DNA of 64,000 bases from Escherichia coli (lineage in GTDB: Bacteria > Pseudomonadota > Gammaproteobacteria > Enterobacterales > Enterobacteriaceae): assembly GCF_044324785.1 (NCBI RefSeq), contig NZ_CP172129.1, one strand, 5' to 3'. The position numbers are program-made. Shown here in pieces: positions 14,601-17,600 of the stretch (positions within the stretch are counted from its first letter, which is position 1; each line of letters starts with the position of its first letter).

Positions 14601-17600
14601 GGATATATATAATATGGGTTCCCGCTTTGCGGGGCTTCGGCCAGTCAGCATTATCACTCATATGATATTTTTGTGTGTGGCCTTCCATGCCGCTGTCGCG
14701 GCATAACCGGTATTTGACAATGTATACAATATTAATTGTTCTGCACACTGTTCATTTGGGAAAGTGATTTCTTCGTGGTCGGAACCCGGATACCTTTACT
14801 GCTTTTTATCCCGGTATAAATCCGGTAAACATCTGATGCGTAGGCAAGACGCCTCTGGTTCTGGCGTTCGGTTTTCCTGAATCCGGCATTGTATGCACCA
14901 ACGGCCTCCCAGGTGACGCCCCATTTTTTAAATGCTATTGCCAGATAATAAGCACCGGTATAAATGTTCATGCAGGGATCTGTTGTCATATGTTCCGGCT
15001 TAATTCCGTAGCGGGCCAGTTCGTTAAAATGCTGGGAATCTACCTGCATCAGTCCGCTGCCATATCCCGTTACCGGATTAATACCGATGGCATTAACCCG
15101 GTAACGGGATTCTTGCCATGATATTGCTCTCAGTAAATCAGGATCTATTTTGTAATCCCTGCCTGCAAGATCAAAGCAATCAGTGGCCAGACAGATCTCA
15201 TTTATAAACATCAGGCAGATGGCTAACATCCATTTTTTCATTTTTCCACCTCTGGTGACTTTATCCGTAAATAATTTAACTCACTCCACAAAAAGGCTCA
15301 ACAGGTTGGTGGTTCTCACCACCAAAAGCACCACACCCCACGCAAAAACAAGTTTTTGCTGATTTTTCTTTATAAATAGAGTGTTATGAAAAATTAGTTT
15401 CTCTTACTCTCTTTATGATATTTAAAAAAGCGGTGTCGGCGCGGCTACAACAACGCGCCGACACCGTTTTGTAGGGGTGGTACTGACTATTTTTATAAAA
15501 AACATTATTTTATATTAGGGGGGGCTGCTAGCGGCGCGGTGTGTTTTTTTATAGGATACCGCTAGGGGCGCTGCTAGCGGTGCGTCCCTGTTTGCATTAT
15601 GAATTTTAGTGTTTCGAAATTAACTTTATTTTATGTTCAAAAAAGGTAATCTCTAATGGCTAAGGTGAACCTGTATATCAGCAATGATGCCTATGAAAAA
15701 ATAAATGCGATTATTGAGAAGCGTCGACAGGAAGGGGCAAGGGAAAAAGATGTCAGTTTTTCAGCAACAGCTTCAATGCTTCTTGAACTGGGGCTTCGTG
15801 TACATGAGGCTCAGATGGAGCGTAAAGAGTCTGCATTTAATCAGACTGAGTTTAATAAATTGCTTCTTGAATGCGTTGTAAAAACACAATCATCAGTAGC
15901 GAAAATTTTGGGTATTGAGTCTCTCAGTCCTCATGTCTCCGGAAATCCAAAGTTTGAATATGCCAATATGGTTGAAGATATCAGGGAGAAGGTATCATCT
16001 GAGATGGAACGATTTTTTCCAAAAAATGATGATGAATAAAAGAAATTTGACTTCGTTCAAATATCAGAGTTTTTATGATTTAAAAAGGTGACAGTACGAA
16101 AGATAATTAGTATATTAATTACGTGGTTAATGCCACGTTAAAATTTGAAATTGAAAATCGCCGATGCAGGGAGACGTGAACTCCCTGCATCGACTGTCCA
16201 TAGAATCCTTTGTGAGGAGGTTCCTATGTATCCGATGGATCGTATTCAACAAAAACATGCTCGTCAAATAGATCTGCTGGAAAATCTGACGGCAGTTATT
16301 CAGGATTATCCAAATCCAGCCTGTATCAGGGACGAAACTGGAAAATTTATTTTTTGCAATACGCTGTTTCATGAGTCATTTCTTACACAAGATCAAAGTG
16401 CTGAAAAATGGCTTCTGTCGCAGAGAGATTTTTGTGAATTGATCTCTGTCACAGAGATGGAAGCATATAGGAATGAGCATACGCATCTTAATCTTGTAGA
16501 GGATGTTTTTATTCAGAACAGATTCTGGACAATATCTGTCCAGTCATTTCTTAATGGACACAGAAATATTATTCTGTGGCAATTTTATGATGCTGCTCAT
16601 GTTCGTCATAAAGACAGTTATAATCAAAAAACGATTGTCAGTGATGATATCAGAAATATAATCAGAAGAATGAGTGATGATTCTTCTGTATCATCATATG
16701 TAAATGATGTCTTTTACTTATATAGCACCGGAATCAGTCATAATGCTATAGCAAGAATATTAAATATATCCATCTCCACATCAAAGAAACACGCATCTCT
16801 GATATGCGACTACTTCTCTGTTTCTAATAAAGATGAGTTAATTATCTTACTCTACAATAAAAAGTTTATTTATTATTTATACGAGAAAGCTATGTGTATC
16901 ATAAATACGCGTTAATAAGGTGTTAATAAAATATAGACTTTCCGTCTATTTACCTTTTCTGATTATTCTGCAAACATAAGTGGTAACCAGAAGATAAACA
17001 GCGGGAGGTGTTATTGAAAAGATTTGGTACACGTTCTGCAACAGGTAAGATGGTAAAACTAAAATTACCTGTAGATGTGGAAAGTCTATTAATTGAGGCA
17101 AGTAACAGAAGCGGAAGAAGTCGATCGTTTGAGGCAGTAATAAGACTTAAAGATCATCTTCACCGCTATCCAAAGTTTAACAGGGCAGGGAATATCTATG
17201 GTAAGTCGCTGGTTAAGTATCTGACAATGCGTCTGGATGATGAAACTAACCAGCTACTTATTGCAGCCAAAAATCGTAGTGGATGGTGTAAAACAGATGA
17301 GGCTGCAGACAGAGTTATTGATCATTTGATCAAGTTTCCTGATTTTTATAACTCGGAGATATTCAGGGAGGCAGATAAAGAGGAAGATATAACATTTAAT
17401 ACACTCTAGTTTTATTCATTTATCCGAAATTGAGGTAACTTATGAATGCTGTTTTAAGTGTTCAGGGTGCTTCTGCGCCCGTCAAAAAGAAGTCGTTTTT
17501 TTCCAAATTCACTCGTCTGAATATGCTTCGCCTGGCTCGCGCAGTGATCCCGGCTGCTGTTCTGATGATGTTCTTCCCGCAGCTGGCGATGGCCGCCGGC

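Follow-up and report, generated by a model that had tools for sequence, protein, structure and literature searches.

The 64-kb window, i.e., the whole stretch of Escherichia coli DNA analysed here, contains an origin of transfer that almost certainly is the oriT of an F-allele IncF (MOBF) conjugative plasmid and that should work as it does in F. It occupies the 414-bp gap between the minus-strand SLT gene and traM, and its nic site lies on the minus strand (Table 1). The element is a textbook F oriT, which is already known, and adds nothing on F-type conjugation. The assignment is built on four things read from the window, namely its identity to F, where and on which strand the TraI substrate lies, the F-type cognate proteins and how the genes are oriented. 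Cleavage, protein binding and the direction of transfer are carried over to this plasmid from experiments on F. SLT/orf169 and traM flank the oriT at the start of the tra operon, and ssb, psiB, psiA and hok lie upstream of it.

Sequence, position and strand of nic

The plus strand carries the 33-mer GGTTCTCACCACCAAAAGCACCACACCCCACGC at 15311..15343 with no mismatch. Even when up to three mismatches were allowed this was the single match in the 64-kb window, and 100 shuffled sequences gave none. The 19-nt nic core GCGTGGGGTGTGGTGCTTT was found once in the window, on the minus strand at 15325..15343. The single-stranded DNA substrate of TraI was described as 5'-TTTGCGTGGGGTGT/GGTGCTTT-3' (Hekman et al., PMC2504302), and this F sequence is present as an exact and unique match, on the minus strand only, at 15325..15346. 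In the first-pass annotation 15311..15343 had been read as the reverse complement of an F-type nic sequence, and this is borne out both by the alignment with F and by the occurrence of the TraI substrate on the minus strand only. The alignment with the oriT of F and R100, which had been proposed there as a check, was run and gave a near-complete match to F, with F-type bases at +5 and +7.

The scissile phosphate was placed with the help of published oligonucleotides. The 5'oriT60-mer ends with GCGTGGGGTGT and the 3'oriT30-mer begins with GGTGCTTTTGG, and TraI becomes joined through Tyr16 to the 5' phosphate at nic (Dostal et al., PMC3074121). The published oligonucleotides that abut nic have exact matches on the minus strand, namely at 15333..15352, 15333..15392 and 15303..15332. 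As they end and start at the complements of 15333 and 15332, the scissile bond lies between these two positions. It is flanked by a T (the complement of 15333, +1, F oriT 141') and a G (the complement of 15332, -1, 140'). The nick had earlier been put on the minus strand near 15331/15332; the strand stands and the position has to be shifted by one base to the right.

For the numbering used here the F oriT number equals the window position minus 15192, and in the relaxosome numbering +n corresponds to 15332+n and -n to 15333-n. This mapping was checked at two points: the published insert of "nucleotide 133 to 168" begins at 15325, and the R-strand C at +9 in the cryo-EM structure corresponds to window position 15341. 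When the minus strand is folded as single-stranded DNA it forms two hairpins, between which nic is left unpaired (-13.6 kcal/mol, z = -2.6). The inverted repeat directly 5' of nic on the T-strand is present (GCAAAAAC/GTTTTTGC), and the 'F oriT hairpin' oligonucleotide is this same hairpin (PMC3074121).

Protein sites, cognate proteins and TraM operators

The positions of the protein sites in oriT were taken from the F relaxosome cryo-EM structure and carried over via the sequence identity to F (Table 1). The region of the IHF, TraY and TraM (sbmC) sites is as in F, with 15282..15517 identical throughout. In sbmC, a site absent from the first-pass annotation, the hexamer scan detected AGCGGT at 15429 and ACCGTT at 15463, and the full site falls inside the +143 limit (15475). 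Among the TraM sites sbmC is the one most important for transfer (PMC3159463; PMC7555446).

Table 1. Predicted sites of the oriT and genes of the transfer and leading regions (window coordinates; positions relative to nic in brackets).
Feature	Position	Strand	Basis
TraI helicase-mode loading region	15306..15332 (-27..-1)	-	relaxosome structure
Inverted repeat TTGGTGGT/ACCACCAA, 3' of nic	15306..15325	-	repeat search and fold
TraI trans-esterase (relaxase) site, ssDNA	15331..15341 (-2..+9)	-	relaxosome structure
nic (scissile phosphate)	15332..15333	minus (T) strand	published oligonucleotide ends
TraI trans-esterase site, dsDNA contacts	15342..15347 (+10..+15)	-	relaxosome structure
Hairpin GCAAAAAC/GTTTTTGC	15342..15359 (+10..+27)	-	repeat search and ssDNA fold
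IHFa site, IHF U-turn in oriT	15355..15392 (+23..+60)		predicted by identity to F
Three-TraY train, sbyA/sbyC region	15393..15422 (+61..+90)		DNA identical to F
TraM density on sbmC	15425..15449 (+93..+117)		relaxosome structure
sbmC, TraM site inside oriT	15427..15470		17-nt inverted repeat AAAGCGGTGTCGGCGCG/CGCGCCGACACCGTTTT
sbmB, TraM operator	15512..15535		repeat in register with sbmA and literature placement
sbmA, high-affinity TraM operator	15558..15581		motif, 6-bp register, palindrome
traM, relaxosome/coupling accessory protein binding sbmA, sbmB and sbmC (in F)	15656..16039	+	ORF
traY, relaxosome accessory protein	17008..17409	+	100% identical to F TraY
traI, relaxase/helicase cleaving nic (by identity to F)	41659..46929	+	ORF, 1756 aa
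orf169/ygfA, SLT lytic transglycosylase	14732..15241	-	ORF; Pfam SLT E = 2.5e-22
DUF932 gene	13615..14436	+	
orf95-like gene	13209..13496	+	
hok	12188..12310	+	
psiA	11154..11873	+	
psiB	10723..11157	+	
ssb	SSB domain within 7587..8450	+	

The cognate proteins are encoded in the same window. In TraI the residues Tyr16/17, the His146/157/159 triad, Gln193 and Arg201 are present. Over residues 1-239 it does not differ from the crystallised F TraI36 (PDB 1P4D/2A0I), and there are matches to the F relaxosome entries 9F0X-9F12 too. TraM is identical to F TraM in 126 of 127 residues (99%), including the whole DNA-binding N-terminal half, and its gene is annotated as traM in identical plasmids. The sole difference from F TraM, S98P, is located in the C-terminal tetramerisation/TraD-binding domain. 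Behind traM the plus strand continues with traJ, traY, traA, traL, traE and traK. In addition, the traJ 5' UTR (16121..16232 region, plus strand, 124.8 bits) and the antisense FinP RNA (16154..16232, minus strand, 97.3 bits) were detected, both with scores far over the Rfam gathering score.

Between nic and the traM promoter F has three TraM sites, among which sbmA shows the highest affinity and is made up of four A(G/C)CG(G/C)T repeats round a symmetry centre, with alternate motifs 12 bp apart (Wong et al., PMC3159463). In the window GCTGCTAGCGG is present in exactly two copies, at 15524..15534 and 15570..15580 and thus 46 bp apart, together with an inverted partial copy (CCGCTAG) at 15559..15565. 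The second copy is held by sbmA, which consists of the four hexamers ACCGCT, AGGGGC, GCTGCT and AGCGGT in a 6-bp register and is palindromic about 15569/15570. Its outer hexamers (15558 and 15576) match A(G/C)CG(G/C)T perfectly and the inner two are degenerate, with two mismatches each. The first copy belongs to sbmB, which runs out in GCTGCT and AGCGGC at 15524..15535 and is mostly degenerate, with one near-perfect hexamer. The exact borders of both operators were set from the published motif, the 6-bp register and the order of the sites. The hexamer A(G/C)CG(G/C)T on its own is not significant window-wide, with 78 occurrences observed and 58 expected. Taken from the sequence, the two GCTGCTAGCGG copies would be the right halves of sbmB and sbmA and not stand-alone sites, a reading that is supported by the register. 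The first-pass annotation had remarked that the repeats look like TraM sites, with which the F hexamer, the register and the position between nic and traM agree. Of the range given there, 15527..15580, the end is correct, and the start has to be set back by three bases as the first copy begins at 15524.

The operators sbmA and sbmB are described to overlap the traM promoter, and TraM autorepression acts through both (PMC3159463; PMC7555446). On this basis TraM would, when bound to sbmB and sbmA immediately ahead of its gene, repress its own promoter. A scan with the sigma-70 consensus detected no traM promoter on the plus strand. With relaxed settings two weak candidates were obtained, CTGCTA-18-CATTAT, with the -35 element in sbmA, and CTGACT-17-TATTTT, which lies directly ahead of sbmB. 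Because the scans pinned no traM promoter, the overlap of operators and promoter is taken from the literature.

As an alternative, the GCTGCTAGCGG repeats could mainly serve a purpose other than TraM binding, e.g., as a terminator-like hairpin at 15524..15540 followed by a T run, insulating traM from oriT transcription. The terminator scan did return one weak plus-strand site in which GCTGCTAGCGGCGCGGT is followed by GTGTTTTTTT. However, the stem has only five pairs, and as shuffled sequences contain 0.6 such sites on average this is within chance. The repeats, on the other hand, carry the published F TraM hexamer in a fourfold palindromic 6/12-bp register and sit where sbmA and sbmB are described. 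We therefore regard the terminator as very improbable and treat the repeats as parts of the two TraM operators.

Direction of transfer and the leading region

From what is known for F, the relaxosome would be assembled on this oriT by IHF, which bends the DNA at about 15355..15392, by three TraY on about 15393..15422 and by TraM on sbmC (15427..15470), which would connect the complex with TraD, the coupling protein. The trans-esterase domain of TraI would melt and bind the minus strand at 15331..15341, and Tyr16 would cut between the complements of 15333 and 15332 and stay on the 5' phosphate, both of which were shown for the identical F sequence. Since TraI holds the 5' end, the minus strand would be unwound as in F and leave the donor 5' to 3', toward lower coordinates. 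Again following F, orf169 would be expected to enter first, followed by the leading region, which includes ssb, psiB, psiA, hok and the Frpo-like repeats; the tra operon would come last.

The T-strand serves as template for the leading genes, both in F (PMC9849209) and in leading regions generally (PMC11541004). The leading genes of the window are located on the plus strand, thus the incoming minus strand would be their template in the recipient. Transfer to the left with the leading region going first had already been proposed in the first-pass annotation, and the 5'-linked TraI on the minus strand as well as the plus-strand leading genes speak for it. Its further statement that every gene downstream of the three repeats lies on the plus strand is right for the leading genes and fails for SLT/orf169 beside oriT, which lies on the minus strand.

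As in F, orf169 would be the first gene to reach the recipient and would be transcribed away from oriT. Its orientation is a known exception in F, and it is expressed only after synthesis of the complementary strand (PMC9849209). At position 15281 the window has a T where F and R100 have a C, and this puts a stop codon (TGA) into the minus-strand frame ahead of the ATG of orf169 at 15241. The RefSeq entry of F annotates the orf169 ORF with 603 nt and a GTG start straddling nic, which is probably an over-extended gene call.

In addition to the genes in Table 1 the plus strand of the leading region encodes ParB-like, DUF905, methyltransferase, DUF3560 and antirestriction proteins. Three direct repeats of about 620 bp, which are 68-96% identical, are found at about 3918..4541, 7175..7800 and 12565..13191, and each of them precedes a block of plus-strand leading genes. 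By their sequence the three repeats look like Frpo/ssi single-strand promoter regions. A linear scan of the repeats for -35/-10 hexamers on both strands gave nothing usable, probably since the promoter of Frpo is reconstituted only in the folded stem. On the minus strand a 'hypothetical protein' is annotated at 7098..7505 in identical plasmids. It lies wholly within the second Frpo-like repeat and opposite to its neighbours, and the ORF is probably spurious.

Between the second and the third Frpo-like repeat a hok/sok-type toxin-antitoxin module is located (11979..12310). Its Rfam sok match (11979..12151) is reported on the plus strand and adjoins hok. The distal leading region has taken up an ISEc32 (IS110-family) element, of which the transposase gene lies at 1323..2294 on the minus strand; it is located upstream of the antirestriction gene at 2696..3121.

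One could also imagine that the oriT is a relic, or that the plasmid uses it in another way, with no nicking at all, nicking at a second site or nicking on the other strand. The three small differences from F in 15255..15700 could be taken in this sense, and so could S98P in the tetramerisation/TraD-binding domain of TraM. However, the segment from nic to sbmC is wholly identical to F, the TraI recognition sequence is present once only and on the minus strand, and TraI, TraY and TraM are all intact proteins of the F type. Moreover, identical plasmids are typed as conjugative. A relic or a different use is hence extremely improbable, and we keep to an oriT that should be nicked at the F position on the minus strand.

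Read in this way the oriT gives the whole window its polarity: the strand transferred would be the minus strand, with everything below 15332 as the leading region and the tra operon at the end. This polarity helps to interpret the Frpo-like repeats and the way in which the genes for anti-defence and SOS inhibition are oriented in the window.

Comparison with F, R100/R1 and pED208

Compared to plasmid F (NC_002483.1) the region 15255..15700 differs at three positions, and none of these is within 15282..15517. No base is changed in the nic core, the inverted repeats on either side of it, the IHFa and TraY sites, sbmC or sbmA. Also the order of SLT gene, oriT, traM, traJ, traY and traA is the same in F, where the SLT gene is found at 65556..66158 and traM at 66479..66862 of NC_002483.1. 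TraI, TraY and TraM are the same alleles in both, save for S98P in TraM. The first difference, T at 15281 in the window versus C in F, is outside the protein sites. The others fall into the left half of sbmB, where the window reads GGGGGGG at 15518..15524 and F reads GGGGT, corresponding to a 1-nt insertion and a T to G exchange. In the leading region the window has three Frpo-like repeats, whereas two are described for F (PMC9849209).

Among the 1171 PLSDB records that match 15486..15560, the GGGGGGG allele of sbmB is the minority and is found exactly in 89. About 1060 of the records carry a 97.3% version of this segment, consistent with the F sequence. The allele is the one feature within the element that departs from F, and it moves sbmB and sbmA by one bp relative to sbmC. 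Judged from the sequence, this could alter the cooperative occupancy by TraM and in this way retune traM autorepression or the transfer frequency in this lineage, which we hold to be unlikely.

The 501-bp oriT region is matched by about 4700 PLSDB plasmids. Among the matches listed, at least 12 E. coli plasmids of about 142-155 kb agree with the window at 100% identity over its first 25 kb. Two of those plasmids, AP024132.2 and NZ_CP107285.1, are typed in PLSDB as IncFIA/FIB/FIC and predicted conjugative.

R100/R1 (NC_002134.1) has the same architecture, with oriT flanked by the SLT gene and by traM (at 50890). Over 15273..15359 (about -60 to +27) R100 and F are identical except for +5 and +7, and with just two bases between them an oriT of the R100/R1 specificity group, which would need another TraI allele, could be considered here. 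However, at +5 and +7 of the T-strand the window has G and G like F, whereas R100 has T and A. The TraI of the window carries Gln193/Arg201 as in F, and that of R100 Arg193/Gln201. According to Harley and Schildbach (in 2003) residues 193 and 201 are said to set the specificity of F versus R100 TraI. The region of the IHF, TraY and TraM sites is strongly diverged in R100 (75% mean column identity overall), and in this region as well the window follows F. With neither T/A at +5/+7 nor Arg193/Gln201 in TraI, an oriT of the R100/R1 allele is ruled out for practical purposes, and the F allele stands.

More distantly, the complex of TraM with sbmA from pED208 (IncFV, PDB 3ON0) shares the logic of the sbmA described here, in that two TraM tetramers bind four staggered motifs of which alternate ones are 12 bp apart. 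The two systems differ in the motif that is read: TraM of pED208 recognises GANTC, and the motif present in the window is that of F, A(G/C)CG(G/C)T.
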